Source: Deltaproteobacteria bacterium (GTDB lineage Bacteria > Desulfobacterota > BSN033 > UBA1163). Taken from it: a DNA stretch of 64,000 nt. The position numbers and the translations under genes are program-made. Positions within the stretch are counted from its first letter, which is position 1. The number at the start of each line of letters is the position of its first letter. The stretch is from assembly GCA_018333535.1 (NCBI GenBank), contig JAGXTA010000071.1, positions 99,100 to 163,099 of the forward strand, in the 5' to 3' direction. The notes under the pieces were generated by a model. That model was not told the DNA's origin. It did no database searches and was given only the letters and a program-made list of their open reading frames with translations. Shown here piece after piece: positions 6,923-40,589 of this stretch.

Positions 6923-6950
6923 TTGACAAATTACAAAAATGTCTATAATA
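6923..6950 (+). promoter_or_regulatory. sigma-70-like promoter candidate upstream of the KAS/histidine-kinase operon
   Basis: TTGACA at 6923-6928 and TATAAT at 6944-6949 (15-17 nt spacer depending on the -10 register), in an AT-rich spacer ~45 bp upstream of the 6992 start. Confidence 0.45.
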
Positions 6951-6991
6951 ATACGTAAGTTGTTTAACTCATTAAAAACTTTAAGAGAAAA

Positions 6992-8242
6992 ATGGACAAT
7001 CAAAAAAGAAGAGTAGTCATCACCGGTATGGGAGTCGTCGCCCCCAACGGGATCGGAATAGATAATTTCTGGGATTCCTTAGTCCACGGCCGGTCTGCAG
7101 TAAGAAGAATCACCCACTTCGACGCCTCCTCCTACCCCTGTCAAGTCGCCGCCGAAGTCCCCGATTTTGATCCCACGGATTATATGGATCCCAAAACTGC
7201 TAAAAGGTTGGACAAATTTGCCCAATTTGCTTTAGTAGCTTCAAAAATGGCTGTCGAAGATTCAAAATTTGATTTAGATTTAATTGATCCCTATAGGATT
7301 GGGGTAGCTATTGCAACTGGAATCGGTGGTGGGGAATGCAAAGAAAATCAACACATTATTTTTATGGAGAAAGGAGTCAAGAGAATAAGTCCTTTTACTG
7401 CAGTAATGATCTGTACTCATTCAGCTGCTGGTATTATTAGCTGTGAATTGGGAGTAAAAGGCCAAAATATTACAATATCTTCGGGTTGTACATCAGGGCT
7501 TGATGCAATCTACTCAGCTTATAATGCGATTCAATTAGGAGATGCTGATATAATGTTTGCTGGTGCCGGTGAAGCTCCCATTACACCTTATATTATTGCA
7601 ATTTTTTGTGCTGCCGGACTTCTTTCAAGGGATAATGGAGAACCAGAGAGAACGATTAAACCCTACGATTCTCGTGGAGAAGGAACAGTATTAGGGGAAG
7701 GAGGGGCCATATTGATATTGGAAGAGCTTCAAAGTGCTCTTAAAAGAAAAGCAAAAATATATGGCGAAATTTTAGGTTATGCTTCGTGCAATGAAGCTTA
7801 TAATATATTTAGAATAGATCCAAGCGGAGAAGCAACTGCAATGGTAATGAAAAAAGCAATAGAGATCGCTCACCTTAGCATAAAAGACATTGACTATATT
7901 AATGCTCATGGGAATGGTTCACCCGAATATGATTTAAATGAGACGGTTGCTATAAAAAAAGTTTTTGGCAAATCGGCAAACTCCATTCCTGTTACTTCAA
8001 TCAAACCAGTAACTGGGCAATCCTTTTCGGTTACTGGAATTCTCCAAATGATTACATGCCTATCAGTCATTAAACATGGTATTATCCCACCAACTATGAA
8101 TCATACAATTCCCTCAATAGGTTGTGATCTCGATTATGTGCCCAACCATTTCAGAAAGAAAGAAGTCAATATTGCCTTAATGAATGCTTTAGGATATGGT
8201 GGAGGTCATACAGCCCTGATCGCTGGTAGATTTAATTATTGA
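6992..8242 (+). CDS. beta-ketoacyl-ACP synthase II-like (FabF/KAS family), divergent
   Basis: 416 aa; active-site Cys (SSGCTSGLDA) and first His (YINAHGNGSP) conserved. The second catalytic His appears replaced by Gln (SIKPVTGQSFSV vs FabF STKSMTGHLLG). Stop overlaps the downstream kinase start (ATGA). Confidence 0.8.
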   Translation: MDNQKRRVVITGMGVVAPNGIGIDNFWDSLVHGRSAVRRITHFDASSYPCQVAAEVPDFDPTDYMDPKTAKRLDKFAQFALVASKMAVEDSKFDLDLIDPYRIGVAIATGIGGGECKENQHIIFMEKGVKRISPFTAVMICTHSAAGIISCELGVKGQNITISSGCTSGLDAIYSAYNAIQLGDADIMFAGAGEAPITPYIIAIFCAAGLLSRDNGEPERTIKPYDSRGEGTVLGEGGAILILEELQSALKRKAKIYGEILGYASCNEAYNIFRIDPSGEATAMVMKKAIEIAHLSIKDIDYINAHGNGSPEYDLNETVAIKKVFGKSANSIPVTSIKPVTGQSFSVTGILQMITCLSVIKHGIIPPTMNHTIPSIGCDLDYVPNHFRKKEVNIALMNALGYGGGHTALIAGRFNY

Positions 8243-10422
8243 ACTTGGAGAAAGATAAATTGTCCATCCCTACCATAACACTTTTATTTGCATTTTTAGT
8301 AAATTTAGGGCTTGGCCTTTTAGTATATATTAAAGCAACTTCTTACAAACGAGTAAATATTATTTTTGCCATCCTTGCCTGGTCTGCAGCCGGTTGGGCT
8401 TTTAGCTTTTTTCTGGTCTATCTTTTCACTGATAATCCTTTAAAATTATTTTTTGGAAGAATGGGTTTTGCAACATCGAGTATTATATCCACTGCATTTC
8501 TTTTATTTGCAATTATCTTTCCTAGTGAACAAAGAGCAGTTAGCTCATTTAAACTTATTATTTTGAGTTTGCCAGCTTTATTATTTTTGGGTTTATCTTT
8601 TACTGATAAGATAGTGTTTTCACTTGGCAGTGGTTTAAAAATGTTTTCCTATGGCCCATTTTATCCATTATTTTCTTTTTATTTAACAGGTTACATAATT
8701 TTAGGATTCGTTTTCTTGATAAAAACATATAGGAAGACTTCTGGACAAGAGAGACTCCAAGTTAAATACTGTTTATTGGGGATGTTTTTTACTTCGAGCC
8801 TTGGATTATTGAATAATTTATTTCTTCCGATGCTTGGGATTTCTATGCTTAATTGGCTCGGTCCGTCCTTAACAGTAATTATGGTAGGTTTTACAACCTA
8901 TTCCATTATTAAACATCGTTTGATGGATATTAATATTGTTTTTAAAAAAGGGACGACTTATATTCTTTTGTTGTTGCTTCTGTTTGTCCCCTCCTTTCTT
9001 TTAATCCTTCTTGGGCAGAAATTTTTCTATGGAAAAATTAATTATTTATTTACGGTGATGATGTTTTCGGTTCTTTTCCTGGTGGCACTCTTATTTTACA
9101 GGATCAAACCAAGGACTGAAAAGGCAGTGGACCAATTCCTTTTCAAAGAACGCTATAATTATCGCGAGACCCTGGGGGAATTGAGCAAGGCCATGGTGAA
9201 TATCCTCGATCTCCAATCACTTTTGAAGAAAATCATGGAGACCGTGACCCAAACCATGGGAGTGGATAAGGCGTCCCTGTTCTTATTGGATGACGAAAAA
9301 GGGGGTTATGATTTATTCGAATCGAAGAATATCAAGATGCCTGCCTCTTCGCCTCTCCTCCGCAAGGAGGCCCCTCTTCCCGGTTATTTACAGAAGATGA
9401 GAGAAATTGTTGTAAAAGAAGAATTAGCCAAAGGAACCAATATCCCCGAATTAAAAATGGTCATTGAGCAGATGACTTCGCTGGAAGCGGAGGTCAGCAT
9501 TCCCCTGCTTTCGAAAGGACAGCTTATCGGCATTATTAATCTCAGCCATAAATTCAATAAAGATGTCTATTATCAAGAGGACATTGAACTCCTCACCACT
9601 CTGGCCAATCAGACCGCCATTGCTGTTGAGAATGCAAGGCTCTTTGAAGACCTGAAAAGGTCAAAATCCTATATTCGCAGGGCGGACCGCCTCGCCTCCC
9701 TTGGAACCCTGACGGCAGGCCTGGCCCATGAAATTCGCAACCCCCTGGTTGCCATCAAGACGCTCACCCAGTTGTTGCCGGAACGGCTTGAGGATGAGGA
9801 ATTTCGTAATCATTTTCTAAAAATTGCCGCAGGAGAGGTCGATCGGATCTCACATCTGATCAATGAACTCCTCGATTTTGCCAGGCCTTCGATCCCAAAA
9901 TTGGAATTTGAAGATGTCAACAGCATTTTGGATGGAATGATCCTTCTGGTGTCGACAGAGAGCAAGAAAAAGAATGTTCATATTGAGAAACAATATGCGA
10001 CGGATCTTCCTTCCGTTAAGGTTGACCGGGAACAGATCAAGCAGGTTTTTTTAAACATCCTGCTAAACGCCATTGAAGCAACTCCTGAGAATGGGAAAAT
10101 CACTGTAAAAACCCATTCTTTTTTAAAACCCGGAGGGGAACCCTATCTTCAGGTCGAATTTAAGGATACGGGATGCGGCATCCCTCAAGAATATTTAGAG
10201 GAAATTTTCAATCCCTTTTATACAACGAAAACGACGGGAAGCGGCCTGGGACTGTCGATCTCCAACCAGATCGTACGGGACCACAAAGGATATATTGATG
10301 TTGAGAGTCAAAAGGACAAAGGGACCTCTTTCTTCATCAATTTGCCCGTGGACCAGGACCATCCAAGAAGAAGACGAGTTGATCTCGAAACTCAGCATAC
10401 GCCTTTTTTTGAGCCACGATGA
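8239..10422 (+). CDS. membrane sensor histidine kinase with multi-TM N-terminal domain, GAF, HisKA and HATPase_c; PEP-CTERM system kinase PrsK-like
   Basis: 727 aa; ~12 hydrophobic segments in the first ~290 aa. GAF-like region; H-box LAHEIRNPLVAIKTLTQLL; N-box LNILLNAIEA; G-boxes DTGCGIP and GSGLGLSI. Architecture matches the TIGR02916 description; PEP-CTERM proteins and a PrsT-like TPR lipoprotein lie elsewhere in the window. Confidence 0.75.
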   Translation: MNLEKDKLSIPTITLLFAFLVNLGLGLLVYIKATSYKRVNIIFAILAWSAAGWAFSFFLVYLFTDNPLKLFFGRMGFATSSIISTAFLLFAIIFPSEQRAVSSFKLIILSLPALLFLGLSFTDKIVFSLGSGLKMFSYGPFYPLFSFYLTGYIILGFVFLIKTYRKTSGQERLQVKYCLLGMFFTSSLGLLNNLFLPMLGISMLNWLGPSLTVIMVGFTTYSIIKHRLMDINIVFKKGTTYILLLLLLFVPSFLLILLGQKFFYGKINYLFTVMMFSVLFLVALLFYRIKPRTEKAVDQFLFKERYNYRETLGELSKAMVNILDLQSLLKKIMETVTQTMGVDKASLFLLDDEKGGYDLFESKNIKMPASSPLLRKEAPLPGYLQKMREIVVKEELAKGTNIPELKMVIEQMTSLEAEVSIPLLSKGQLIGIINLSHKFNKDVYYQEDIELLTTLANQTAIAVENARLFEDLKRSKSYIRRADRLASLGTLTAGLAHEIRNPLVAIKTLTQLLPERLEDEEFRNHFLKIAAGEVDRISHLINELLDFARPSIPKLEFEDVNSILDGMILLVSTESKKKNVHIEKQYATDLPSVKVDREQIKQVFLNILLNAIEATPENGKITVKTHSFLKPGGEPYLQVEFKDTGCGIPQEYLEEIFNPFYTTKTTGSGLGLSISNQIVRDHKGYIDVESQKDKGTSFFINLPVDQDHPRRRRVDLETQHTPFFEPR

Positions 10423-11990
10423 ACTATCAAGATTTAATTCACTCTCCCATCCTCTCCCCCGGGGTTGCCAAACTGGTTCAGAAATGCGCCCTGAACAACG
10501 CCCCTGTTTTTATCCAGGGCGAACAGGGGACGGGAAAAGAGCTGATCGCAAAGATCATCCATCATACAGGGGATTGGAAATCCTCTCTTTTTTACAGGGT
10601 GGATTGTCAAATCCTTCATGAGAATACTCTCTTTGACCACCTCTCTCCCCTTTTTGAAAAGATCCTTTTCGGGATGACCCCGGCGACCTTCTTTTTAAAC
10701 GAGGTGGGACGCCTCGGCCGTAGGGATCAGTTGAAACTCCTGGAACTGGTCGAGGACGGCCTGCTCCAGAACGGAGTGGAGAAAAAAACCGTTAAAAACA
10801 TCCGCTTCATCTCCTCCTCCTCGGAGAACTTAGAAGAAAAGGTGGCGCAGGGAGCATTTTCAGGGGACCTCTATTTCCGCTTAAGAACCATGGCCATCCA
10901 TGTCCCGCCGCTGAGGGACCGTCCGAGAGAAATCGGCGCCATCGCTCAATATATTCTCGAAGAGAGTGTCAAGCAGTTGAAGCTTAAAAGAATGGGGATC
11001 TCGAATGACGTCCTCAGGTTGTTGGAGAGATACTGGTGGCCCGGGAACCTGAAGGAACTGGAGAGGGTCGTCACCCGTTGCGCCATTTTATCAGAAGGTG
11101 AAAAGATTATGGAAAAAGATCTCTCGATCGAGAACGGGATGGATAGAAATTCCTTTTTCTCTTTCGTTGAAAAGGCGGAGACGAGGCCGGCGGCGCCTCC
11201 CAAGAACGAACCCTCCCGTAACCATTCCAACGGACTCAATATCCCCGATGCCTCGTATTTTTTCCTTGAATTGGTCCATCGCATCAAAAATCCCCTGGTC
11301 TCCATCAAGACCTTCACTCAACTGCTGAGGGATAAATTTAATGATGCGGAATTCAGGGGCTATTTCTACAGGATCGTCACCGAGGATATCGAAAAGATTG
11401 ACGGCGTGCTCAATGGCCTCCTCAATTACATCCGGATCAATCACCCGGTCGAGAAGAAAGACACCATTCATTTCATCATCGAAGATGTCCTGAAAAAGCA
11501 TGGGACGCAGATTGAAAACAAGAGGATCAAGCTATTCAGGAAGTTTGAAAAAGACCTTCCTGAAACGATCCTCCATGAAGAGCAGTTGCGATACATTTTG
11601 ACTTCCCTGATTCAGTATGCCATTCCTGCGATCCCAGCCAGCGGAAGCATCGGTTTTTTAACGAAGTCCCTGGATGACCGCCCGGTTCGCGTGGAAAACG
11701 GAGAAGGCCAAACGCCTTCCTCAACAGAGAGGAGATACATCGAAATCATGATGGTTTTCACCGGCTACAAGAAACCCATCGATCCGCTGGATACGTTATT
11801 GGGAGCGCCTTTACTACGCGAGGAGGAATTGACCGATCTGGAGATACGGCTCATCAAAGAGATGATCGAGAGGAACCGGGGGATGATGAAATTCGAAGTC
11901 AATGAGAAGAAGCTCAGGACCCTGGTTTCCCTGAAATTCCCCGCGGAGAGAAGAAAGGTGATCACTTATCAGGCTACGAATTCATCATAA
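10419..11990 (+). CDS. fusion of a sigma-54-type AAA+ domain (degenerate GAFTGA) with a degenerate histidine-kinase-like domain
   Basis: 523 aa; Walker A GEQGTGKELIAKIIH, arginine-finger region GDLYFRLRTMAIHVPPLRDR, GAFTGA position reads MTPATF. No HTH. C-terminal half has HisKA-like VHRIKNPLVSIKTFTQLL but no N-box Asn and no DxGxG. Paralogous to 35387..36244. Start overlaps prsK-like stop. Confidence 0.7.
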   Translation: MNYQDLIHSPILSPGVAKLVQKCALNNAPVFIQGEQGTGKELIAKIIHHTGDWKSSLFYRVDCQILHENTLFDHLSPLFEKILFGMTPATFFLNEVGRLGRRDQLKLLELVEDGLLQNGVEKKTVKNIRFISSSSENLEEKVAQGAFSGDLYFRLRTMAIHVPPLRDRPREIGAIAQYILEESVKQLKLKRMGISNDVLRLLERYWWPGNLKELERVVTRCAILSEGEKIMEKDLSIENGMDRNSFFSFVEKAETRPAAPPKNEPSRNHSNGLNIPDASYFFLELVHRIKNPLVSIKTFTQLLRDKFNDAEFRGYFYRIVTEDIEKIDGVLNGLLNYIRINHPVEKKDTIHFIIEDVLKKHGTQIENKRIKLFRKFEKDLPETILHEEQLRYILTSLIQYAIPAIPASGSIGFLTKSLDDRPVRVENGEGQTPSSTERRYIEIMMVFTGYKKPIDPLDTLLGAPLLREEELTDLEIRLIKEMIERNRGMMKFEVNEKKLRTLVSLKFPAERRKVITYQATNSS

Positions 11991-12194: not shown

Positions 12195-13607
12195 GTGGCG
12201 ATGGTTGGAAAGGAAGCATTGAAAAGCATTCTGGTTGTCGATGACGAGGTGGGGGCCAGAGAATCCCTAAAAATGATTTTAAAGGGGGAGTACCAGGTCT
12301 TTTTGGCGAAAAACGCCGAAGAGGCCTTTCAACAGGTCGATGGCCATATCCCTGACGTAATCCTTCTTGATATCATCCTGCCGGATATGGATGGCCTGAG
12401 GATTCTGAAAAAGTTGAAGCAGACCCTTCCCGAACAGATCGTCATCATGATCACTGCCACCAAGACAGTGAAGACAGCCGTGGAAGCGATGAAACTCGGA
12501 GCTTATGACTACGTCACCAAGCCCTTCGATGTGGATGAGCTTCGCTTGATCATCAACCGGGCCCTTTCCACAAAGGCGCTGAAGGAGGAAAACCAGCGGC
12601 TCTGGATGGAGGTTGACCGGAATTTTGGCTTTGAAAATATCGTGGGAAAGAGCAAGGGAATGAAGGATATTTTTAAAGTGGTGAAGCAGGTGGCCGATAC
12701 CCGATCCACGGTTCTGATCATGGGAGAGAGCGGAACAGGGAAAGAACTCATCTCACGCGCCATCCACTACCATAGCCCGCGGAAAAATCATCCCTTCGTC
12801 ACCATCAACTGTGCGGCCATTCCGGAGACCCTGATCGAGAGCGAACTCTTCGGCCATGAAAAGGGGGCCTTCACCAATGCGATCGAGAAAAAATTGGGTC
12901 GTTTTGAGGCGGCCCATGAGGGGACTCTCTTTCTTGACGAGATTGGTGAATTGAGCCTGATGACCCAGGCGAAGATCCTCCGGTTTCTCGAAGAGAAGGA
13001 ACTCAACCGGGTGGGAGGTTCGAAGACGATTAAGGTCGATGTGAGGCTCATTACAGCGACCAATAAAGATTTGCCCCAGCTTGTCAAGACAGGACAGTTT
13101 CGAGAGGATCTCTACTACCGGATCAATGTGGTTCCCATCATCCTTCCCCCGTTGCGAGAGCGAAGAGAGGATATCCCCCTATTGATCAGCCATTTTACAA
13201 AGAAATTCAGCGAGGAGAACCAAAAACAGTTGAAGGGGGTCAGCAAAGAGGCCTTGGAATTGCTGCTGAACTACGAATGGCCCGGAAATGTCAGGGAACT
13301 GGAGAACCTGATCGAACGGGTGATTGCCCTCACCCACAATGAGTATATCCAGCCGGACGAATTGCCCCTTCCCATCATCAATCAATCCAAGGCGAATGGT
13401 TTGAAAGAATCGGTCTTAAGCGGCCAGATCTCCTTCTCGAGGGCGGAGGAAGAATTTGAGAAGGAAATCATTCTGGATGCCCTGAGAAAAGCCAATTTTA
13501 TTCAATCGCACGCCGCAGAGATTTTAGGGATCAGTCGAAGGATTTTGAAATATAAGATGGACAAATTGGGGATCCAGCAGCAGGACCGGATCAAGCAATA
13601 CTCCTAA
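12195..13607 (+). CDS. sigma-54-dependent response regulator (NtrC family: REC + AAA+ + Fis-type HTH); PrsR-like
   Basis: 470 aa; REC domain (VVDDEVGARESL...DIILPDMDG); Walker A GESGTGKELISRAIH; GAFTNA motif; FREDLYYRINVVPIILPPLRERRED; C-terminal HTH ILGISRRILKYKM. Confidence 0.85.
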   Translation: MAMVGKEALKSILVVDDEVGARESLKMILKGEYQVFLAKNAEEAFQQVDGHIPDVILLDIILPDMDGLRILKKLKQTLPEQIVIMITATKTVKTAVEAMKLGAYDYVTKPFDVDELRLIINRALSTKALKEENQRLWMEVDRNFGFENIVGKSKGMKDIFKVVKQVADTRSTVLIMGESGTGKELISRAIHYHSPRKNHPFVTINCAAIPETLIESELFGHEKGAFTNAIEKKLGRFEAAHEGTLFLDEIGELSLMTQAKILRFLEEKELNRVGGSKTIKVDVRLITATNKDLPQLVKTGQFREDLYYRINVVPIILPPLRERREDIPLLISHFTKKFSEENQKQLKGVSKEALELLLNYEWPGNVRELENLIERVIALTHNEYIQPDELPLPIINQSKANGLKESVLSGQISFSRAEEEFEKEIILDALRKANFIQSHAAEILGISRRILKYKMDKLGIQQQDRIKQYS

Positions 13608-13841
13608 ATCTTCCACCTGCCAAATATTTAGTTCCTGCGCCGAAAGATACGGTTTTAAGTTCAAGAGGCCCGCCTAAAATGTAAACCCTTGTTCATTTTT
13701 GTACGTCCCTTTTAGCCCGATAATGCCAGAATGCCACCCTCATAACTTGTAATAACAATAGCCCTGAAATATCAACAGGTTATTATACTGAAACAATTCA
13801 ATGATTTTAATTCAAAATGGCAACATTTTTGCTTTAATAGT

Positions 13842-15005
13842 ATGTCTATTCAATCGGATCGAAAGGAAAAAAGAATGGAACCTAAAAAAAGTTTGGCCAA
13901 TATCCTGATTGTGGATGACGAAATAGGCCCGAGGGAATCCTTAAGAATGATTCTTAAACCCCATTATAACATCTTCATTGCAGAGAACGGGCATTCGGCC
14001 ATCCAGATGCTCCGGCAGACCGAGATGGATGTTGTCACCCTGGATATTAGAATGCCCGGCATGTCAGGCATTGACACCCTCAAGGAGATCAGGCTTCTCG
14101 ATCCTGATGTGATGGTCGTCATCATCACGGGCTTTGGGACGCTAAAGAGCGCGATCGAGGCCATCCGATACGGGGTGTTCGATTATATCCCGAAACCTTT
14201 TAATGTCCCGGAGATCATGTGCATTATTGAAAAATCGATCCAGCGGAGAAAATTGAACCTGAAAGTCAAGGAGATGCTTCGTCAGCGCTCCGATTCCGGC
14301 AATCAAAACGGTCCGATGGATACCGACCTTTTGCTTTCGAAGGAAATGAGCGGTCTTGCCGATTCGGGAAACGGAGAAAGAGGCGCTTCGGAAAATCAGA
14401 ACTGTCTCGAATTTTCAAAAGTTCTTGCCTTTACGCTTGAGGAGAAAGACCCTTATACGTCGGGACATTCAGAGCGCGTTTGTTACTATTCTGATTTCAT
14501 CTCAAAAAAATTGTCGCTCAATCCAAAGGACAGGAATGAAATCAGGGTCGCTTCTTACCTCCATGATATCGGAAAAATTGGCATCAGCAACCGTTTTATC
14601 AATAAGAAGGGCGCTCTCTCGTCCACCGAATGGGCCATCATCAAACAGCATACCAAAAAGTCACTCGAACTCTTGGTGCCCCTGAACCTTTCACCCCATA
14701 CCCTTTCCTATGTTCACCACCACCATGAGCGGTACGATGGAACCGGTTATCCGGATGGATTGTCGGAGGACCGGATCCCATTGGGAGCCAGGATTATTGC
14801 AATTGCGGATGCTTATGACAGCATGACCTCCGACCGGCCCTACCGCAAACCCCTAACGAATGGGGAGGCAAAAAATGAGCTCTTGAAATTTGCCGGAAAA
14901 CAGTTTGATCCCCAGTTGGTCACCATTTTTCTGAACATTCTTAGGGAGATGGAAGAGGTCTTTCTGGTCAAGGACCATGTCAGAGTTCCATCCGTTTCCT
15001 ATTAA
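13842..15005 (+). CDS. response regulator with HD-GYP phosphohydrolase domain (putative c-di-GMP phosphodiesterase)
   Basis: 387 aa; N-terminal REC (ILIVDDEIGPRESL...LDIRMPGMSG); C-terminal HD-GYP motifs YLHDIGKIGI and HHHERYDGTGYP. Confidence 0.85.
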   Translation: MSIQSDRKEKRMEPKKSLANILIVDDEIGPRESLRMILKPHYNIFIAENGHSAIQMLRQTEMDVVTLDIRMPGMSGIDTLKEIRLLDPDVMVVIITGFGTLKSAIEAIRYGVFDYIPKPFNVPEIMCIIEKSIQRRKLNLKVKEMLRQRSDSGNQNGPMDTDLLLSKEMSGLADSGNGERGASENQNCLEFSKVLAFTLEEKDPYTSGHSERVCYYSDFISKKLSLNPKDRNEIRVASYLHDIGKIGISNRFINKKGALSSTEWAIIKQHTKKSLELLVPLNLSPHTLSYVHHHHERYDGTGYPDGLSEDRIPLGARIIAIADAYDSMTSDRPYRKPLTNGEAKNELLKFAGKQFDPQLVTIFLNILREMEEVFLVKDHVRVPSVSY

Positions 15006-15022: not shown

Positions 15023-15784
15023 ATGAACCAGATCATCCGATGCATCACCTGCGATGAAATATTCACAAAAACCCCTTACGACCAGTGGCCTGAGTATGAG
15101 TATGTTTCGGTTAACCGTCCTGAGCCCAGCCGGACGATTGAAAAAGATGATTTTCAAGATTTTTTAAAACATCATCGGAACCATCCGATGGAGGACCTGA
15201 AGGTTCTGGAGGACTCCTTCGTCAGCGAAAAACCTTATTTCGAGCCGACAAAGGCCTCCTATTTCAAGGCGACAAATGGAAAAGAGATGTTTGTGATCAA
15301 GAAATTCAGGAAGAGGATCGATGAACCACTGTCCTATCAATTGATCCGGGGAGACTACTCCTTAAAACTTCTCCGCCTTGAAATCCAGGCCGAAGAGATT
15401 GTCAAACAACTTAAAAAAGAACTGAATCCCTCCCCTCTTCCGGAGCCTCAGTTAGAGGCCTTTCTCAAATTGTATCGGCAGGTTCTCAAAACCATCGATA
15501 TAAATAGCCTGGAGAGGGTTCCCGAAGATTCCCCTCATCCCCTCGAGATCTATTATAAAATGGATGATGTCAGCCTCGCTTACCTGCTAAGAAATTGCAG
15601 GACAATATTTAAAGGGCAGGAATATCAAGCCGTCGAGGCGTTTATCCAGCGTCACAGGGAGGATGGGGTTTTATTGTTGAAAGCCGTCTACCAGATTCAA
15701 ATCTCTGAGTCATCCAAGTCAAAGAAAGGCGCCCTTCCCATCCCTCACGCCATAGAAGGGAAGAAATATGTAGAGAAAACATAA
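15023..15784 (+). CDS. hypothetical protein
   Basis: 253 aa ORF with good coding appearance directly downstream of the HD-GYP regulator. N-terminal CITCDE...; no recognisable domain. Confidence 0.5.
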   Translation: MNQIIRCITCDEIFTKTPYDQWPEYEYVSVNRPEPSRTIEKDDFQDFLKHHRNHPMEDLKVLEDSFVSEKPYFEPTKASYFKATNGKEMFVIKKFRKRIDEPLSYQLIRGDYSLKLLRLEIQAEEIVKQLKKELNPSPLPEPQLEAFLKLYRQVLKTIDINSLERVPEDSPHPLEIYYKMDDVSLAYLLRNCRTIFKGQEYQAVEAFIQRHREDGVLLLKAVYQIQISESSKSKKGALPIPHAIEGKKYVEKT

Positions 15785-24919: not shown

Positions 24920-25267
24920 TTAAAACATCCCTAAAAAATCTTCAAGGAACTTCTTTCCTTTATGGTCAAGTTCGTCAAACTTAATACCTGCCTCATTTTC
25001 TTTCTGAGACGCCCAGATAACCTCTCCCTTTCCTTTCAGTCTAAAAAAATCTTCATACGTCTCAAAAAATATTTCTTTTCCTGAACGAAAAATATCCTTA
25101 GTTATTAAAGGGTTATCCGCCTTTAATTTAAATCCGCCACGGGATATATTCTGAACCCATCCAAGCATTATGGGTTCCATATCAGATGTTCGAATGGATA
25201 CCTTTGTTTCCAGATTGACTCTCGGATATTCCCGTCTCTCAGATTGGCCATCCTGGGCAATTTCCAT
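24920..25267 (-). CDS. PilZ-domain protein (putative c-di-GMP receptor)
   Basis: 115 aa; RxxxR (ERREYPRV) and N/DxSxGG (NISRGGF) PilZ motifs. Confidence 0.7.
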   Translation of the reverse strand: MEIAQDGQSERREYPRVNLETKVSIRTSDMEPIMLGWVQNISRGGFKLKADNPLITKDIFRSGKEIFFETYEDFFRLKGKGEVIWASQKENEAGIKFDELDHKGKKFLEDFLGMF

Positions 25268-25403
25268 TTTTTATCCCTTCGTAAAAAAGAGGTTTTTTAA
25301 ATTTTAATTAATCGATATTTATTAAGCAATTAATATGCCAAATAATTTCAGAGCTTTCAATAAAGACTACAAGAGAATTCGATAAAACCTTGAATCCAAA
25401 AAA

Positions 25404-25722: not shown

Positions 25723-26922
25723 ATGTCAAGACGGAAAGCGACGGAGTTTGAGGGCGTGAGATACCGGAGCCATCCGAGCCGGAAGCATGGGATCAAGAAT
25801 GATCAGTATTTCTCCATCCGTTACCGAGTGGACGGGAAGAGAGTCGAGGAGGGTTTGGGGTGGGCCAGCAAGGGGATGACGGCAAAGAAGGCAGCGCTTC
25901 AGCTTGCAGAGCTTCAAGAGGCGCACAGGAAGGGGACAGGTGAACCTGTAACCCTTCGAGAGAAACGGAAGATTGCCAGGGCAAAGAGAGGGAAGCAAGA
26001 GAAACAGGGGATCACATTCGGAGATTATTTCATCAATACTTTCATTCCACAGGCTGTCATTGAAAAACCGAGGGAAACGAAAGATAAAAAATCCCACTAT
26101 GAACACTGGATCAAGCCGGTAATGGGCGCCCTTCCCTTCCCGGAGATCGGCGTCCTTGAATTAGAGAGGGTCAAGACAAACATGTTGACCGCTGGTAAGG
26201 CTCCCCGAACGATTCAATATGTGTTTTCAACAATTCGGCGGGTATGGAATGATGCAAAATTGAAGGGGATCGTATCAGAGGAAAGTCCGACCCGGAAGAT
26301 CAAACTGGACCGCTTCGATAACAAGCGGGCCAGGTATTTCACCCATGATGAGGCGGAAAAATTCTTGACCGAACTGAAAAAGAGAAATGGTTCGTTATGG
26401 GATATGGCTCTCGTTTCTCTTCAATCGGGCCTTCGCTTCAGTGAAATTGCGAACCTGAGATACGGGGATATTGACCTAAAGAGAAATATCATTGGGATCC
26501 GGGACAGCAAGGGAGGTTTTTCAAGATATGCCCGAATGACCGAAGAGGTCAGGAATGTTTTTTCAAGAATGGAGCCCGGGGCCAGGGAAGCCCTCATTTT
26601 CCATGATGCCGATGGAATGAGGATCAAGAGGCCGTCGAAAATTTATATGAAGGTCATAGACGGCCTGGGATTCAATAACGGCGTAACAGACCGGCGACAA
26701 CGATTGACATATCACTCTTTGCGACATACATATGCAAGCTGGCTTGTAGATCGGGGAGTCGGGCTGTATGATGTTCAAAAACTTCTCGGTCATAAGAACA
26801 GCCAACTAACCGAGCGATACAGCCATTTATCAGATACCCGGCTGGACAATGACGTGAGGGAATTCGAAAAAGGAATCAAGCAGGCCCGGAGAGGTAAGGT
26901 CGTTGCAATAGGAAAGCGTTAA
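25723..26922 (+). CDS. tyrosine-type site-specific integrase (phage integrase family)
   Basis: 399 aa; C-terminal catalytic region LTYHSLRHTYASWLVDRGVGLYDVQKLLGHKNSQLTERYSHL (R..HxxR..Y). Confidence 0.9.
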   Translation: MSRRKATEFEGVRYRSHPSRKHGIKNDQYFSIRYRVDGKRVEEGLGWASKGMTAKKAALQLAELQEAHRKGTGEPVTLREKRKIARAKRGKQEKQGITFGDYFINTFIPQAVIEKPRETKDKKSHYEHWIKPVMGALPFPEIGVLELERVKTNMLTAGKAPRTIQYVFSTIRRVWNDAKLKGIVSEESPTRKIKLDRFDNKRARYFTHDEAEKFLTELKKRNGSLWDMALVSLQSGLRFSEIANLRYGDIDLKRNIIGIRDSKGGFSRYARMTEEVRNVFSRMEPGAREALIFHDADGMRIKRPSKIYMKVIDGLGFNNGVTDRRQRLTYHSLRHTYASWLVDRGVGLYDVQKLLGHKNSQLTERYSHLSDTRLDNDVREFEKGIKQARRGKVVAIGKR

Positions 26923-27015
26923 ATTGAAAATGGGGAAATAGGCGGGCCAGCCGACAAGCCGGGAACCCTACCCGGTTTTTCCCCATTCACTACAAGGGCA
27001 GCGAAGGGGGCTGAG

Positions 27016-27597
27016 ATGGAAAAGACAGGATGGTTGGAAAATTTCTTGGAGCCATTGGAGAGGAGAGCTAATGAAATTTTAAAGACTCAATCGAATATTA
27101 AAGAGGACTCCAATTTTAAAAAACTGAATAAGGGGAAAGGTGTCTCTCGGTGGCAAGCCAATCCAAAATATCAAAGTGCGAAAGATCTTTTAAAACAGAT
27201 ACAATCTTTTAAAGAACTTATTTTAAAAAATGGAACACCGAGGGACGTTATCTATAAATTAACATGGATACTCGGAATCGCCTATGATATGGGCTGGCCG
27301 GTCCCAAGCCAATATGTGATCGGGCGCTCTAAAGGCGGGAAAGCCCCAAAGAAAAAAAAGGGAATCCTTTTAGCGATTAAATGGGCAAGGGAAAAGAGCA
27401 AACAAAAGAGTGCGCGGGGTTTATGGAATTATTTTAAAAATAAAAACTTTGAAAAAGACGAGTATGAAGTCTATTTCTATCAAGATCCGACCGGCGCGGG
27501 TGAAGATCTTCTTTGCCAAAAAATCGACAGTATAGAGAAAGGGTCTATCAAATTCGAGGCATTTAAAAAATACGTTTACAATAAAAATAATGGGTAA
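27016..27597 (+). CDS. hypothetical protein (integrative-element cargo)
   Basis: 193 aa, Lys-rich, no recognisable domain; followed by an intrinsic terminator. Confidence 0.45.
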   Translation: MEKTGWLENFLEPLERRANEILKTQSNIKEDSNFKKLNKGKGVSRWQANPKYQSAKDLLKQIQSFKELILKNGTPRDVIYKLTWILGIAYDMGWPVPSQYVIGRSKGGKAPKKKKGILLAIKWAREKSKQKSARGLWNYFKNKNFEKDEYEVYFYQDPTGAGEDLLCQKIDSIEKGSIKFEAFKKYVYNKNNG

Positions 27598-27635
27598 GTA
27601 AGCCGCTTTCTTACCTTTCCCGAATGTTATATTGA

Positions 27636-27670
27636 CCTCCAGAGAATCAAATTTTCCTGGAGGTTTTTTT
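27636..27670 (+). terminator. intrinsic terminator
   Basis: Hairpin cctccag-N14-ctggagg followed by TTTTTTT. Confidence 0.6.
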
Positions 27671-27901
27671 ATGAGGAAAACAGCAGTTGATCTTTCGGGC
27701 CTAAAGTCCAAATGGGGCTCTACCGTCGTCGCGCGGGAGGAAATTCGTAATTTTTCCGGGGGAGCGATTTCCGAGAAGTATGTTGCTAATCTGGATTCTC
27801 AGGGCCGGGGGCCTTCTGGGCGATTTCGATGCGGCCGCAAGATTTTATACCCGGTCGATGATTTGATCCGATGGCTCGAGGCTCGTTCGGAGGTTGCTTA
27901 G
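27671..27901 (+). CDS. Xis/AlpA-like helix-turn-helix DNA-binding protein (putative excisionase/regulator)
   Basis: ORF track 27632..27901 includes the terminator; the likely start is MRKTAVDL at 27671. C-terminal ...KILYPVDDLIRWLEAR resembles excisionase/AlpA HTH proteins. Confidence 0.5.
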   Translation: MRKTAVDLSGLKSKWGSTVVAREEIRNFSGGAISEKYVANLDSQGRGPSGRFRCGRKILYPVDDLIRWLEARSEVA

Positions 27902-28022
27902 ATGAGTCTCACGAATGACGATACGATAAAAGACTTCCAAATCGTGGACTTTCCCGAAGAACTAAAGGCGCAGGTTAGCGCTGTGATCCTTACAGCATTC
28001 TTCCGGGAGAAGGAGAACGGGC

Positions 28023-30245: not shown

Positions 30246-30489
30246 TGGATGTCTCGAAGAGATCGGCAAAGGATACAGGCCGGGCCTGCTGCCGTGGCTG
30301 AAACAGCAGCCAGCCCGATGGCGACGGCTGCTGAACCTGGAGGACGCAATCAATAAGGCGGCGCTTGGGGGCGGTCAGGTAGGGTTGACGGCGGCACTGT
30401 CCGAGTACAAGGACTTCTTCCGGGAGATGGTGACGGCGTACGAAATGAGTAACACATTTCCATTATTCGAAGGCAGGGCAAATGAGTAA
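30226..30489 (+). CDS. hypothetical small protein
   Basis: 87 aa ORF overlapping the neighbours by a few codons. Weak support. Confidence 0.3.
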   Translation: MDNSLIDGCLEEIGKGYRPGLLPWLKQQPARWRRLLNLEDAINKAALGGGQVGLTAALSEYKDFFREMVTAYEMSNTFPLFEGRANE

Positions 30490-31303
30490 ACACCGAAAGA
30501 CAATAACCATCCAGGAAACAGCATATTCAATCCTGGCTGCTCATAATCCAATGACTGTCCGGCAGGTCTATTATCAGCTGGTTTCCAGACAAGTCATAGA
30601 AAATAACCGCGGCCAGTATCAGGCCGTCTCAAATGCTTTGGTTCAGGCGAGACAAGAGGGATTCATCCCATGGGAATGGATCGAGGACAGAACGAGACGA
30701 CCAAGGTCGGTCAGTATGTGGGACAACTTATCTGATTTTGGCTATACAGTTCTTTCTTCATATCGCCGCGACGTGTGGGATTCTCAACCTCATTATATTG
30801 AGGTATGGCTGGAGAAGGATGCGCTCTCAGGGATATTCGAGGGTGTACTGGAACCCTACGGAGTGACCTTGAATGTAGGCAGAGGATATGACGGCTGGGA
30901 CTCCATCCATAATGCAGCTGAGCGTTTCAATGATGGGGACGGAATGACTATCCTTTACTTTGGCGATTTCGATCCGTCCGGAGAGGACATGGCACGGTCC
31001 CTAAAAGAGAGATTAGCCTTTTTTAAGTCAAGTCCGGAAATCCTGAAAGTGGCGTTAACCTACGGGGACATAACCCGTTACAACCTGCCTCCCGACTTCA
31101 CCAAAGTAGGGGATACCAGACAAAAAAATTTCGTTGCCAAGTATGGAAATGTGGCTGTTGAGCTTGACGCTTTACCTATCGATATTCTCCGAGATCGGAT
31201 AGTTAGGGAAGTGGAGGCACGGATGGACCTGAATGCACTGGCAGGGGTGAAGCTGATTGAAGATGTAGAGAGAGAGGAACTGGCAAGGGCATTGGGGCGG
31301 TGA
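30482..31303 (+). CDS. Spo11/TopoVI-A-like protein (5Y-CAP tyrosine motif + Toprim)
   Basis: 273 aa; TVRQVYYQLV (RxxYY catalytic-tyrosine motif), IEVWLEKDALSGIF (Toprim Glu motif), ILYFGDFDPSGEDM (DxDPxG Toprim motif). Motif order and spacing match type IIB topoisomerase A / JetD-like folds. Confidence 0.55.
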   Translation: MSKHRKTITIQETAYSILAAHNPMTVRQVYYQLVSRQVIENNRGQYQAVSNALVQARQEGFIPWEWIEDRTRRPRSVSMWDNLSDFGYTVLSSYRRDVWDSQPHYIEVWLEKDALSGIFEGVLEPYGVTLNVGRGYDGWDSIHNAAERFNDGDGMTILYFGDFDPSGEDMARSLKERLAFFKSSPEILKVALTYGDITRYNLPPDFTKVGDTRQKNFVAKYGNVAVELDALPIDILRDRIVREVEARMDLNALAGVKLIEDVEREELARALGR

Positions 31304-31416
31304 TAACAGTGCGGGTCCTTCCTGGAGGTTTGGCGGTGAGACTGCGCTGCCCGCGATATTCGAGAGGGAGTGAAAATTTTTTTGACTTGACGTTTTACTT
31401 TAGCTATCAATAATGA

Positions 31417-31746
31417 GTATCCGAGGAGGGTTACCTGAAACTCGTCACTCAGGCTAAATTTGCAAAATTAAAAGGTGTCTCCAGACAGCGGGTCGGCCAG
31501 TGGGTCCGGGATGAGATCATCGAGCTGAGGGGTGGCAAGATTGATCCTATACAGGCGGATAGCGATCTTAACAACCGTCTCGATCATTCAAAGCGGCTTG
31601 ATTGGGAGTTTACCAATTTAAAGCCACCAGTTCCATTCAAGAAGATCTCTACTTTTGAGATACCAGACCTGGAATTGGATTTTAGCGCTTATTTTAAAAA
31701 AAGAGCTCTCAAAAATAAGAGAACGAAGAAAGATCGGGGGCGGTGA
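31417..31746 (+). pseudogene. HTH DNA-binding protein gene lacking a canonical start (possible frameshift relative to ATG at 31413)
   Basis: Frame encodes ...LKLVTQAKFAKLKGVSRQRVGQWVRDEIIEL... (HTH) but has no in-frame ATG/GTG/TTG. An ATG at 31413 opens a different frame (MSIRGGLPETRHSG*). Confidence 0.35.
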
Positions 31747-35386: not shown

Positions 35387-36244
35387 TTAATTGACCGATG
35401 GATAATAAACGACCTTCCTTCTCTCTACTGGAAATCTTAAAGTGATTAATGTCCTTCCCTTTTGGCCATCTATTCCAAATTCCATCACCCCTTGATTTTT
35501 TTTGACCATTTCGTCAATGAGTCTTAACTCAAAATCAAGGGTTTCTTTCTTTTCTGGGGAAGGGTCTTTGATGATGGGTCCAAATTGTTCTATCGTTTTT
35601 CTATAACCATCAAAGAGGACCGATATTTCAATATATTTTCCTTCCGCGAAGGATGGAGCGCTGACCTCTCCATGCTGCTTCTGATGGATAAACAATCTGG
35701 TCATAAAGCCAACCCCTCCATTGACAGGGATCCATCTTATGGCATACTTAAGGGTAGAGTCTAAAATATATTTCAAATGTTCATCTGGAGTGATGGTTTC
35801 GGGAAGGTCTTCTTTAAAATTTTTAAACACTCGAATCTTCTTTTCAGACATTTGGGTTTGGTTGTTCTTTAGCACATTTTCGATGAGGGCGTGTACCGTA
35901 TTTATTTTTGTTTCCGTGGAATTGACCTTGAGGTAATTCAGAACAGAGCTCAGGAGCAGATCGACCTTCCCGATCTCCTCATTGAGAATATGATGAAAAT
36001 GATCATCGAAGGTCTTATCGTTAAATTTTCCTCGGGATATTTGCGTAAAATATTTGATGGATTCCAGTGAATGGTCAATGCGTTGAATCAATTCGATGAG
36101 AAGAGAGGATTTGAATGAACCATGCAGCTCATTTGCCATCATCAGTTTTTTAAATTCGAGTGAGCCAGGATCACCCTTATCGGATTGAGGAAAAATAGAA
36201 TGGAATAAATCATTCTGGGGATTAAAAATAGAATTATTTTTCAT
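35387..36244 (-). CDS. degenerate histidine-kinase-like protein (HisKA/HATPase-like, lacks N-box and G-box residues)
   Basis: 285 aa; clear paralog of the C-terminal half of 10419..11990 (KFND, FTQ, F.K.DLPETI...YAI..IP..G..GF.T, RTLITLRFPVERRKV). The phospho-His position appears to be Gln (LIQRIDHSL vs LVHRIKNPL). Confidence 0.6.
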   Translation of the reverse strand: MKNNSIFNPQNDLFHSIFPQSDKGDPGSLEFKKLMMANELHGSFKSSLLIELIQRIDHSLESIKYFTQISRGKFNDKTFDDHFHHILNEEIGKVDLLLSSVLNYLKVNSTETKINTVHALIENVLKNNQTQMSEKKIRVFKNFKEDLPETITPDEHLKYILDSTLKYAIRWIPVNGGVGFMTRLFIHQKQHGEVSAPSFAEGKYIEISVLFDGYRKTIEQFGPIIKDPSPEKKETLDFELRLIDEMVKKNQGVMEFGIDGQKGRTLITLRFPVERRKVVYYPSVN

Positions 36245-36811
36245 ATATTATTTGGTTCTTATCCACTAAGATAAAAGCAATTTTGATACCACATTTGAGG
36301 TGGGATCCCAACTATTGATAATCATTCTATTATCGATTTATTCTGAACACTTTAAGGGTCTTAATGGTGGAAAATATTTTCCAGTTTGTCCCGATAAATT
36401 ACCACTAAAAAGTGAAAATGTTTTCCTATCCCTCATCCAAAAAGGTCTGGATAGCGGATTGGGAAGCTTCACGGCCTCGGCCTGGAGGGGGGGATCGAGT
36501 TTATGAGAAATCTCAATCAGGATTGAGGAGGGGTTGGCCAAAAGAAGACCCCAGTCAGGGCCCGCAAAAGGTTCGCAAGGTTAAAGCTTAGTTAGAAAAT
36601 AAACGTCAAGGGTCAAAAGGTAAAGGCTAACCCGCCTTCCGGTAGGCAGGTTAGCCAGTTTTGTGAATGGGTTAGGTCATTGGTCTTAAAGATTTTACCT
36701 TACCACTTCACTTTGCCTAAACTGGCTTCCTAACCATAGCCTTAACCTGAAAAATTTTCATTGTTCGTGCCTGCCTGCTGTGGGCAGGCGTAACCTGACG
36801 GCCATGAAAAC

Positions 36812-39097
36812 TTACTTTAATTTCTCTAACACACTCTTCGCCTCTTCGGCTCCTGCAAACTTAGCGTCCAATTCAAGGGCTTTTTTCAGCTCCCTCTTTG
36901 CATTTTCGTTATCACCATTCTTAAGGTAAGCCATTCCAAGATGGTATCGCATGACAGGATTGTCCGTAATTTTTTCATTCGCCTCTTTCAAATAAGTAAT
37001 CGCACGGGTGAAAATATTCTTTTTGTAATAAACCCATCCGAGGGTATCCGAGATGTGGGGGTCATCCGGAAACTGTTCCTTTGCGCCTTGAGCTAAATTC
37101 AAGGCTTCATCAATATTCTCACCCTTCTCCGCATAGAGATAAGCTAGGTTATTGGCTGCAGGGGCGAATTTAGAATTAATTTTCAGGGCCTTCTGGTAGT
37201 ATTCCTTGGCCTTCTCATACTTCTTCTGAGTGTCATAGATAATGCCTAATCCCATGAGGGCAGAAAGAGAATCCGGCGCCTTCTGGAGAGCGGCACTGTA
37301 TCCCTCGATGGCCTTCTCTGTTAAATTCTGCCGGATATAAAAACTGGCAAGGGAGGTATGAAATCCTGCAACATTGGGATTGAGTTCGATCGCCTTTTTA
37401 TAATTCGTTTCTGCCTGGTCCGCCTCTTTATTTACCTCGTAAAGACGACCCAGCATATTGTAGAAAAAAGGATTTTGTGGAGAAGCCTTAATCTGTGCTT
37501 CCACCCTCTCCAATGCCTTTTTGCTCTCTTTCTGGTTCATGTAGACGACGGCAATGAGATTAAGCGCCTCTAAAAAATTTGGCTGGAGGGACAATGCCTT
37601 CTCAAATTGGGGTAATGCATCCTTCTCCCTCTTTTGCACCAAAAGGATTCGTCCTTTATGGAAATATCCGACTGGATTATTGGGCGCGATCTGAATGACT
37701 TCTTCAAAAGACTTGCTGGCTTTCGGGATATCCCTCTTCAGGAGATAGATGTTTCCAAGGATCAGATGGGCCTGGATCGATTTAGGGTCTCGTTTCAAAA
37801 TCTCCTGTGCTTCCTCAATGGCTAAATCTAAAGCCCCTGTCCTGAGATGGATATCTGCAAGCAGCAATCTCCCTTCAATCCAATTGGGGTTCAGTTTAAC
37901 CGCCTCGGCCAGCACCGTCTTTCCCTGCTGGATATCCCTGTTGCCGAGATGGGCAAGGCCGAGGAAGTGATGGGCCATAAAAGATTTTGGATTATCTTTG
38001 AGGTAAGACTGAAATAAATTAATGGCATCATTGAATTCAGTCTTGACCAGATAGAGGCGGCCCTTGAGGAATATTCCTTCATCGCTTTTGGGATTGATCT
38101 CAAGGATTTTCGCAACCATCTCAGAGGCCTTATCAAACTTACGATCATTAAGGTGGACTTCGGCCAGTTTAGCCCTTGCAGGAATATTTTTCGAATCCAC
38201 CTCGAGCGCCTTCTGGTAGGCCTCAATGGCCTTCTCTTTCTTCCCCCAGATTAAATAGAAGTCTCCCAGATGGATGTGAGAAAGGACCTTCTTGGGATCT
38301 ACTTCGATAGATTTGATGAATTGTTTTTCTGCATCCTCCATTTTCCTTAAAGAAACGTAGAAATTTCCCAAGGCAATGTAAGTATTTCGGTCTTTAGGTT
38401 CGATTTTAATCACCTCAATCAGTTCAGCCTCAGCCAACTCGGCTTTCCCTGTTCTCCGATAGAATTCAGCCAGTCCATATCGAGCCTTTGTCGATTTTTC
38501 ATCGACCTGGATGGCCTCTTTGAATGTCTGTTCTGCCTTAGCAAAATCCTTCTTCATAATATAAAGGTTGGCTAAATGGAGATGGGCTTCAATCTTCTTG
38601 GGATCTTGTTCGATCGCCTTCTTCGCCTCCTCAATGGCCTTGTCCAGATTCCTATCCACAGTATAGATGGAGCTCATGAGCAGACGGCCCGAGGCATTGT
38701 TTGGATCTTTTGCTAGGATCTTTTCGGCCTGTTCTTTTGCCTTCTGGGGGTCTCTTGACAGGAGAAAGAGATTTCCAAGCTGAAGTCTCGCTTCAATTAA
38801 ATCGGGGTTTAACTCAATACTTTTCGAAAACTCAGAAAAAGCCTCCCGAAACTCTCTCACTCCTAAGTGGGTGAGCCCGAGTTTGTAACGGGCCTCGGCA
38901 TTCTTGGGTTCGATCTGAAGAACATTCTTGTATTCGATCATGGCTTCTTTGAATTTGTTTTGCGCGAAATACTTCTCTCCCCTCTTCCAGTGCTTCTCCT
39001 TTTTTGCTTCCTTGCTGCAACCCGATAATCCGGACAGAATGAAGCAAAAAAGAATGATAAAAACAAAAACCGATCTCCTCTTATTTAAAAAGTCCAT
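36812..39097 (-). CDS. TPR-repeat lipoprotein (PEP-CTERM system PrsT-like)
   Basis: 761 aa; signal peptide and lipobox (ILSGLSGCSKE), then >15 TPR repeats throughout. Confidence 0.7.
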   Translation of the reverse strand: MDFLNKRRSVFVFIILFCFILSGLSGCSKEAKKEKHWKRGEKYFAQNKFKEAMIEYKNVLQIEPKNAEARYKLGLTHLGVREFREAFSEFSKSIELNPDLIEARLQLGNLFLLSRDPQKAKEQAEKILAKDPNNASGRLLMSSIYTVDRNLDKAIEEAKKAIEQDPKKIEAHLHLANLYIMKKDFAKAEQTFKEAIQVDEKSTKARYGLAEFYRRTGKAELAEAELIEVIKIEPKDRNTYIALGNFYVSLRKMEDAEKQFIKSIEVDPKKVLSHIHLGDFYLIWGKKEKAIEAYQKALEVDSKNIPARAKLAEVHLNDRKFDKASEMVAKILEINPKSDEGIFLKGRLYLVKTEFNDAINLFQSYLKDNPKSFMAHHFLGLAHLGNRDIQQGKTVLAEAVKLNPNWIEGRLLLADIHLRTGALDLAIEEAQEILKRDPKSIQAHLILGNIYLLKRDIPKASKSFEEVIQIAPNNPVGYFHKGRILLVQKREKDALPQFEKALSLQPNFLEALNLIAVVYMNQKESKKALERVEAQIKASPQNPFFYNMLGRLYEVNKEADQAETNYKKAIELNPNVAGFHTSLASFYIRQNLTEKAIEGYSAALQKAPDSLSALMGLGIIYDTQKKYEKAKEYYQKALKINSKFAPAANNLAYLYAEKGENIDEALNLAQGAKEQFPDDPHISDTLGWVYYKKNIFTRAITYLKEANEKITDNPVMRYHLGMAYLKNGDNENAKRELKKALELDAKFAGAEEAKSVLEKLK

Positions 39098-40583: not shown

Positions 40584-40589
40584 ATCAAG

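Follow-up and report, generated by a model that had tools for sequence, protein, structure and literature searches.

We describe a gene from a Deltaproteobacteria bacterium (assembly GCA_018333535.1) in which inactivated relatives of both partners of a two-component system appear to have been joined in one protein. It lies at 10419-11990 of a 64,000-nucleotide stretch of contig JAGXTA010000071.1, the whole of which is called the window here, and encodes a sigma-54-activator-type AAA+ domain fused to a histidine-kinase-like module. As the AAA+ half is itself degenerate and the kinase half has no ATP-binding boxes, the protein is, judged by its motifs, a double pseudoenzyme, and not an active ATPase placed on a dead kinase. 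The gene is located between the kinase and activator genes of a system resembling PrsK/PrsR, and its product is best explained as a non-catalytic, two-module accessory component of that system, most likely one that adjusts the signalling from kinase to activator. Each half is of a known kind, namely activator homologues without the GAFTGA motif and pseudo-kinases. The apparent novelty lies in the joining of inactivated versions of the two partners of a single system, in a gene placed between theirs, and in the family to which the C-terminal domain belongs.

Domain organization and conservation

The open reading frame (ORF) has the position and length claimed for it in an earlier reading of this DNA made from the letters alone (the sequence-only reading). 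The same reading took the protein to be an AAA+ domain of the bacterial enhancer-binding protein (bEBP) type that lacks GAFTGA and a DNA-binding domain and is fused to a histidine-kinase-like module, and Pfam and the alignments agree. Sigma54_activat (PF00158) matches residues 16–161 (E 6e-24; 85 bits against a cut-off of 20.2), AAA_lid_14 matches residues 166–236, and HisKA (PF00512) covers residues 281–342 with 28.4 bits, just over its cut-off of 26.9. Pfam found no HATPase_c, HTH_8 or receiver domain in the protein, even at E<=1. NCBIfam gave sub-threshold matches only, to sigma-54 activators (NifA, PEP_resp_reg) in the N-terminal half and to AtoS at residues 286–426. The AAA+ domain and lid are modelled by AlphaFold2 (AF2) with pLDDT values of about 78-93, mostly 88-93, the top Foldseek matches of the AAA+ domain are NtrC1, FlrC and PspF, and the dimerization and histidine phosphotransfer (DHp) segment is predicted to form a helical hairpin.

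The fusion is not a chance feature, since it has 836 database matches, of which the best 120 listed are full-length with the same architecture (59-100% identity), and is found in conserved gene order in 35 species. The 120 carry generic annotation only, and the residue counts given below for the AAA+ half and the H-box refer to them. The 35 species are those of the GTDB representative genomes that encode a homologue with >50% identity; all are metagenome-assembled genomes of uncultured organisms, labelled Thermodesulfobacteriota, Deltaproteobacteria, Syntrophaceae or Syntrophorhabdus. A full-text literature search by the Pfam domain names Sigma54_activat and HisKA returned no paper on this architecture.

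Ratios of non-synonymous to synonymous substitution rates (dN/dS, Nei-Gojobori) are 0.04-0.20 for the AAA+ half and 0.04-0.16 for the kinase-like half. By this measure both halves are under purifying selection and hence are functional modules, although the N-terminal half evolves faster than any other part of the operon (50-60% identity, where the activator has 72-82%). A decaying, non-functional remnant of a duplicated kinase/activator pair would account for the loss or alteration of nearly all catalytic motifs, the exceptions being mainly the Walker A Lys, the Walker B Glu and the His and Asn of the DHp. Such a remnant would hardly keep an intact full-length frame in 120 clusters and 35 species, or family-specific motifs that are new and invariant, and decay to a pseudogene is effectively ruled out by the dN/dS analysis.

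The kinase-like half

The H-box of the fusion, ELVHRIKNPLVSIKTFTQLL, closely resembles that of the upstream kinase, LAHEIRNPLVAIKTLTQLL, a likeness already pointed out in the sequence-only reading. The segment H-R-I-K-N-P-L within it is invariant in the 120 homologues, which places His287 next to Arg288 at H+1 and an Asn (Asn291) at H+4. The same reading had the N-box Asn and the DxGxG/GxGxG motifs missing, and two alignments, a pairwise one with the upstream kinase and a profile alignment to ZraS (9jfj), are of one mind on this: the N-box Asn is Tyr400, the G1 box DxGxG reads F-T-G-Y-K and the G2 box GxGLG reads D-L-E-I-R. An intact HATPase_c is excluded by both alignments and by Pfam, and the literature search likewise turned up no known, characterised architecture to which the protein could be assigned. 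The domain corresponding to the catalytic and ATP-binding (CA) domain bears family motifs of its own, EKDLPET, Y-x-L-x-S-x-L-Q-Y-A and F-P-x-E-R-R-K.

Of the features of a HisKA kinase, the fusion thus has the DHp with its His and an H+4 Asn, the predicted phosphatase residue, and lacks an acidic H+1 residue and a HATPase_c domain with N, G1, (F) and G2 boxes. Because the CA domain is without any ATP-binding box and the H+1 Glu is now Arg, the protein is predicted to be unable to autophosphorylate. In four HisKA kinases (CrdS, HK1190, HK4262 and HK853), the acidic residue at H+1 proved necessary for kinase but not phosphatase activity, and the Thr/Asn at H+4 for phosphatase but not kinase activity (Willett and Kirby, 2012; PMC3510030). 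The H+1/H+4 signature of the fusion fits a kinase-off, phosphatase-on state.

The helical hairpin also carries a predicted receiver specificity. Eight positions (H+7, 8, 11, 12, 15, 29, 32 and 36), mapped by hand and taken to be the specificity positions after the HK853/EnvZ literature, read VSTFLFID in the fusion in nearly every close locus and VAT[L/F]LFIE in the upstream kinase, and kinase and fusion match equally closely in six distant loci. E. coli ZraS and AtoS presumably differ at most of these positions. With regard to co-variation of kinase and fusion, the positions barely vary across loci.

The likeness to the kinase might instead reflect a DHp heterodimer of the RetS-GacS kind, in which the fusion would pair with the PrsK-like kinase and the half-dead pair would autophosphorylate less or shift to phosphatase activity. 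The two proteins have almost the same alpha1 helix, their genes are translationally coupled through an ATGA overlap, and the real kinases nearest to the C-terminal half are PrsK-like kinases with seven transmembrane helices (7TM) and a GAF domain (P0243 and P0253). We nevertheless consider such pairing improbable: the alpha2 helix and the dimer core differ, identity is 31% overall, and the conserved AAA+ module is left unexplained.

RetS and ChpT are proteins of the pseudo-kinase type, and DivL and RetS retain more CA motifs than the fusion does. Neither DivL nor RetS is known to be fused to an AAA+ domain or tied to a sigma-54 activator, and the pseudo-kinase DivL (PMC4211667) differs further from the fusion in having Tyr instead of His.

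The degenerate AAA+ half

According to the sequence-only reading, the N-terminal half has Walker A and B motifs and the arginine-finger region of bEBPs, and this is only partly the case. The Walker A Lys40 is present (and kept in 118/120 homologues, with Gly39 changed to Glu in 26/120), as are the Walker B Glu and the finger residue Arg154 (93/120). The Walker B Asp has become Asn93, at a position where the homologues have Lys (69), Arg (21), Asn (19) or Asp (8), that is, a basic residue in 90 of the 120; the first Arg of the FRxDL finger has become Ser148 and the sensor I Asn has become Ser135.

The motif MTPATF, previously placed at the GAFTGA position, has to be reassigned. It lines up with the strand that leads into Walker B (xxGGTLFLDE), and HMMER alignments to NtrC4 and NifA instead put P77-L-F-E-K-I82 opposite GAFTGA, followed by a deletion of 7-11 residues. 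The family consensus at this site is x-L-F-[KE]-E-x, and AF2 models residues 71-81 as a continuous helix. As only the Phe of GAFTGA is kept and 7-11 residues are deleted, the alignments indicate that the L1 loop is lost. In sum, the module retains the AAA+ fold, the lid and the pre-sensor-I hairpin, and the catalytic and L1 elements are gone. Compared with a functional bEBP, the Sigma54_activat-type AAA+ domain is there, and GAFTGA, a catalytic Walker B, sensor I and finger set and HTH_8 are not. With L1, the Walker B Asp, the sensor I Asn, one finger and the DNA-binding domain lost, the N-terminal module is predicted to be incapable of contacting sigma-54 or remodelling its holoenzyme and very probably does not hydrolyse ATP. 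From the same domain content, the fusion should be unable to bind DNA.

Members of the bEBP family without GAFTGA are known, e.g. TyrR, DhaR, HupR and VpsR (PMC3162934). They share with the fusion a Sigma54_activat AAA+ domain with an NtrC1/PspF-like fold in which the absence of GAFTGA precludes sigma-54 contact. They differ from it in keeping a DNA-binding domain and acting as sigma-70 regulators, whereas the fusion has no DNA-binding domain, a degenerate Walker B and sensor I, and a kinase-like C-terminus.

A module that keeps its fold and loses its catalytic and L1 elements is what would be expected of a phosphorylation-independent anti-activator. In one form of this explanation the dead AAA+ domain joins the activator ring as a poison subunit, and such subunits, which have no L1 loop and a defective arginine finger, would cut sigma-54 activation in proportion to their abundance; in another, the DHp and CA modules clamp the activator as NifL does. 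There is a precedent in NifL-NifA, where a histidine-kinase-like DH and GHKL module binds the AAA+ domain of the activator and blocks hexamer formation (PMC12998190). The purifying selection on the N-terminal half, and the absence of the Walker A Lys from several distant relatives, which implies that the module works structurally, are in keeping with such a role. The rapid divergence of the N-terminal half relative to the activator is not, and it would be left unexplained why His287, Asn291 and the receiver-specificity residues are so strictly conserved. The NifL comparison is itself inexact: NifL has PAS sensors and a GHKL domain that keeps nucleotide binding, whereas the fusion has lost the ATP boxes, retains the His and the receiver-specificity residues and carries an AAA+ pseudo-domain in the same polypeptide. 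On balance, we regard an anti-activator of this type as unlikely.

A paralogue and the wider family

The C-terminal module also exists on its own. A second, standalone copy had been reported in the window from the sequence-only reading, and the paralogy is clear (42% identity to the fusion over 252 aa, E 5e-73); the His is replaced by Gln (LIQRIDHSL). The module family comprises about 100 clusters (at 50% identity; E<=1e-30), mostly standalone proteins of 200-350 aa without a Pfam hit, so that the standalone form is commoner than the fusion form. Its members conserve E-K-D-L-P-E-T, the Tyr at the N-box Asn position and F-P-x-E-R-R-K, and only ~30% of them retain the His. The standalone paralogue in the window adjoins a gene for a PrsT-type lipoprotein, and others adjoin exopolysaccharide (EPS) genes (Wzz, Wzy_C, glycosyltransferase). 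We refer to the C-terminal domain as the DLPET domain; it is an unannotated family without a Pfam or NCBIfam model that is recurrently found near PEP-CTERM and EPS loci.

A 552-aa metagenomic protein, P0155 (L050), has an N-terminal half like the XrtA/PEP-CTERM-associated ATPase (TIGR03015, 297 bits, just below the cut-off of 324.5) followed by a DLPET domain, which suggests a tie between the domain family and the exosortase system. In another protein, P0248 (L049:180-2663, 827 aa), a degenerate AAA+ domain lacking GAFTGA (Walker B LLISGI) precedes GAF, PAS and an intact HisKA-HATPase_c pair. The dead AAA+ module thus occurs also on apparently active kinases. The P0248 gene is overlapped and followed by a receiver gene, starting LLIVDDEVSSRESLRM, of the same receiver type as those in the window. 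The genomic context of P0248 and P0155 is given by contigs of only 2.8 kb and 1.7 kb, respectively.

In six distant loci (L041-L046, 28-30% identity), and in the representatives P0225 and P0257, the protein is composed of a receiver, a degenerate AAA+ domain, in several cases without the Walker A Lys, a DHp with canonical H-E-x-K-N-P and a degenerate CA domain, and the gene is likewise placed between kinase and activator. These relatives bring to mind a phosphotransferase of the Spo0B/ChpT type, in which His287 would take phosphate from one receiver and pass it to another, e.g. from the protein with receiver and HD-GYP domains (REC-HD-GYP) encoded downstream to the activator. In the ancestral form, the source of phosphate might have been the receiver within the protein itself. 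With such transfer the operon would specify a four-step phosphorelay or a two-regulator phosphate shuttle. A DHp four-helix-bundle element with an invariant His, joined to a CA-like domain that cannot bind ATP, matches the Spo0B/ChpT design exactly, and the operon does encode two receiver proteins with similar alpha1 helices. Against a relay, the upstream kinase is not of the hybrid type and no receiver domain is left in the close family; a kinase with common specificity residues could phosphorylate the regulators directly, which would make the relay redundant; standalone relatives often have no His; and the protein is structurally distant from ChpT, with neither homology nor closest structural similarity to Spo0B/ChpT. 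We therefore rate a relay as rather unlikely, if somewhat less so than the heterodimer and anti-activator explanations.

A possible tethered negative regulator

Within the reading of the fusion as an accessory component, the mechanism that we tentatively put forward, as possible rather than probable, is a phosphatase or phosphate sink that acts on the cognate regulators independently of the kinase and is tethered to the activator through its dead AAA+ domain. The DHp dimer would dock the receivers of the adjacent activator and of the REC-HD-GYP protein, and the fusion would dephosphorylate these regulators or drain their phosphate, which would give the pathway a negative arm of its own. The dead AAA+ domain, on its flexible linker, would tether the DHp activity to the AAA+ domain of the activator and might in addition disturb the assembly of the ring. 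Translation together with the kinase via the ATGA overlap could set the stoichiometry. The arrangement of P0248 fits the idea of the AAA+ module as a docking device for this regulator family. The earlier suggestion of a phosphotransfer, phosphatase or scaffold partner of the flanking proteins fits, in general terms, with the common specificity positions, the H+1/H+4 signature and the strict synteny; a purely phosphochemical role is weakened for the domain family as a whole, because the standalone form is commoner and often without the His.

Several observations weigh against the phosphatase mechanism. The His is invariant in the fusion, yet HisKA phosphatases have no strict need for it. The ancestral-looking proteins of L041-L046 and P0225, with their receiver and canonical H-E H-box, look like phosphorelay components. 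Since so few of the wider standalone proteins keep the His, what the domain family conserves is probably a binding function and not phosphochemistry. The likeness at the specificity positions might just as well stem from a recent duplication of the kinase gene or from heterodimerisation with the kinase.

A combined explanation, which we offer as speculative and doubtful, is that of a covalent double decoy that physically couples the two-component kinase to the AAA+ ring of the sigma-54 activator, the DLPET domain being a regulatory module of the PEP-CTERM/exosortase system. The DHp would engage the kinase or a receiver, and the dead AAA+ subunit would insert into the activator hexamer. If this is true, a pseudo-subunit sets sigma-54 output stoichiometrically, and phosphorylation alone does not, and the DLPET domain would be a previously unrecognised module found standalone near PrsT and EPS loci and in P0155.

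Pseudo-kinases such as DivL, NifL, RetS and ChpT have repeatedly exposed non-canonical wiring in bacterial signalling, and activator homologues without GAFTGA illustrate that the AAA+ scaffold can be reused. Should the fusion be a tethered phosphatase or a poison subunit, it would represent a new route to a negative arm in a sigma-54 pathway. The control of PEP-CTERM/exosortase and exopolysaccharide (floc, biofilm) genes by PrsK/PrsR, which is poorly understood, would gain a regulator that has so far been missing.

The operon and its relation to PrsK/PrsR

Where the contig is long enough, the loci of the 35 species have the order DnaJ (on the opposite strand), ketoacyl synthase (KAS), 7TM-GAF kinase, fusion, activator with receiver, AAA+ and HTH domains, REC-HD-GYP, a 253-aa ORF and a CcsA-like gene. 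In the window, the start ATG of the fusion and the stop of the kinase overlap as ATGA (Table 1), and the kinase stop often overlaps the fusion start across homologous loci. No terminator-like site was found between fusion and activator.

Table 1. Positions of the fusion gene, its parts and related features in the window.
Feature	Position	Strand	Basis or remark
Fusion ORF, pseudo-bEBP AAA+ / linker / pseudo-histidine-kinase	10419..11990	+	523 aa; ORF translation, Pfam
Sigma-54-activator-type AAA+ domain with lid, aa 16-236	10464..11126	+	Pfam, AF2, Foldseek
Walker A, GEQGTGKE	10518..10541	+	homologue alignment columns
PLFEKI, GAFTGA-aligned segment	10647..10664	+	HMMER alignments, column counts, AF2
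Degenerate Walker B, FFLNEVG	10686..10706	+	homologue alignment columns
Linker, disordered and fast-evolving, aa 237-275	11127..11243	+	AF2 pLDDT <50; higher dN
DHp-like helical hairpin, aa 277-341	11247..11441	+	Pfam HisKA, AF2, alignments
H-box ELVHRIKNPLVSIKTFTQLL	11268-11327	+	alignment with upstream kinase
His287 codon	11277-11279	+	alignment
CA-like GHKL-fold domain without N, G1 and G2 boxes, aa 349-509	11463..11945	+	alignments, AF2
Upstream cognate kinase, 7TM-GAF-HisKA-HATPase_c, PrsK-like	8239..10422	+	TIGR02916 170 bits, below cut-off 300
Downstream sigma-54 activator, REC-AAA+-HTH_8, PrsR-like	12195..13607	+	TIGR02915 461 bits, below cut-off 502.6
Sigma-54 -24/-12 element TGGCAACATTTTTGCT, just upstream of REC-HD-GYP gene	13818..13833	+	kept in 31/32 homologous loci
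Second response regulator, REC-HD-GYP	13842..15005	+	Pfam
Standalone paralogue of the C-terminal pseudo-kinase module	35387..36244	-	285 aa; without Pfam hit
PrsT-type TPR lipoprotein, adjoining the paralogue	36812..39097	-	TIGR02917 424 bits, above cut-off 312

The canonical system has prsK immediately next to prsR in tandem (Haft et al., 2006; PMC1569441). PrsK and PrsR rank among the best family matches for the kinase and activator on either side of the fusion, and the window contains a PrsT protein over its cut-off, PEP-CTERM genes and a sigma-54 promoter. It differs in that the fusion gene stands between kinase and activator and that both of these score below the equivalog cut-offs. The best reading of the gene content is that the system drives sigma-54-dependent PEP-CTERM, exopolysaccharide and cyclic di-GMP (c-di-GMP) genes. 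The two receivers, of the activator and of REC-HD-GYP, share 42% identity and a common alpha1 helix, DDE[VI]G[AP]RESL[KR]MILK.

Some further details of the operon may be recorded. The L1 motif of the activator is GAFTNA, and the homologous loci have GAFTNA (28), GAFTDA (7), GAFTHA (2) or GAFTGA (1). After the last CA strand, the upstream kinase has a basic tail, HPRRRR (10330-10422); most close kinase orthologues checked have HP[KR]RR[KR], which is missing from one of them and from the distant loci. A similar basic tail in the pseudo-kinase family is the nearly invariant F-P-x-E-R-R-K (11940-11965, and 35400-35440 on the minus strand). A FabF-like ketoacyl synthase gene (6992-8242, +), syntenic in most loci, overlaps the kinase start, and a sigma-70-like promoter with 11/12 matches (6923-6952, +) may drive a KAS-kinase-fusion-activator operon. 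The true start of REC-HD-GYP is probably downstream of the tabulated one, an alternative gene call beginning at 13875. The 253-aa ORF (15023-15784, +) follows REC-HD-GYP in most homologous loci, is 49-72% identical between close loci and has no Pfam or NCBIfam match.

Sigma-54 sites and the rest of the window

A -24/-12 element of the form TGGCA-N6-TTGCT precedes the REC-HD-GYP gene at the same intergenic position in nearly all homologous loci, the distant ones included (Table 1). Because of this conservation, the gene for the c-di-GMP phosphodiesterase regulator looks like a conserved sigma-54 target of the adjacent activator. Matches to the sigma-54 consensus are not above chance in the window as a whole (3 against 1.4 expected; 19/100 shuffles do as well), and the site at 13818 is convincing only by its position and its conservation across species.

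A perfect TGGCAC-N5-TTGCA is found at 61630-61645 (-), 204 nt upstream of a PEP-CTERM gene (60467-61426, -), and a second gene for a PEP-CTERM protein is located at 51278-52090 (-). Sigma-54 control of PEP-CTERM genes would fit the description given for PrsK/PrsR. A sigma-54-like site with 1 mismatch (25325-25340, -) lies ~58 nt upstream of a small gene for a PilZ-domain protein (24920-25267, -), a further putative c-di-GMP link in the regulon. Upstream of the standalone paralogue there is a candidate with 2 mismatches at 36291..36276, to which we give little weight as a promoter; it is missing upstream of the standalone homologues in L047 and L048.

The regions 25723-34800 and 39700-43300 part the two halves of the putative regulon. 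Between these halves are an integrase gene (25723-26922), several ORFs without a family match and two HepT/nucleotidyltransferase toxin-antitoxin pairs (41347-43225), and the region looks like a mobile or defence island. Further on, 43868-48813 (-) encodes a papain-family (Peptidase_C1) protein and an 806-aa protein with a PilY1-like beta-propeller and fn3 domains; a sigma-54-like site with 2 mismatches (48791-48776) falls just downstream of the start of the longest possible version of the PilY1-like ORF.

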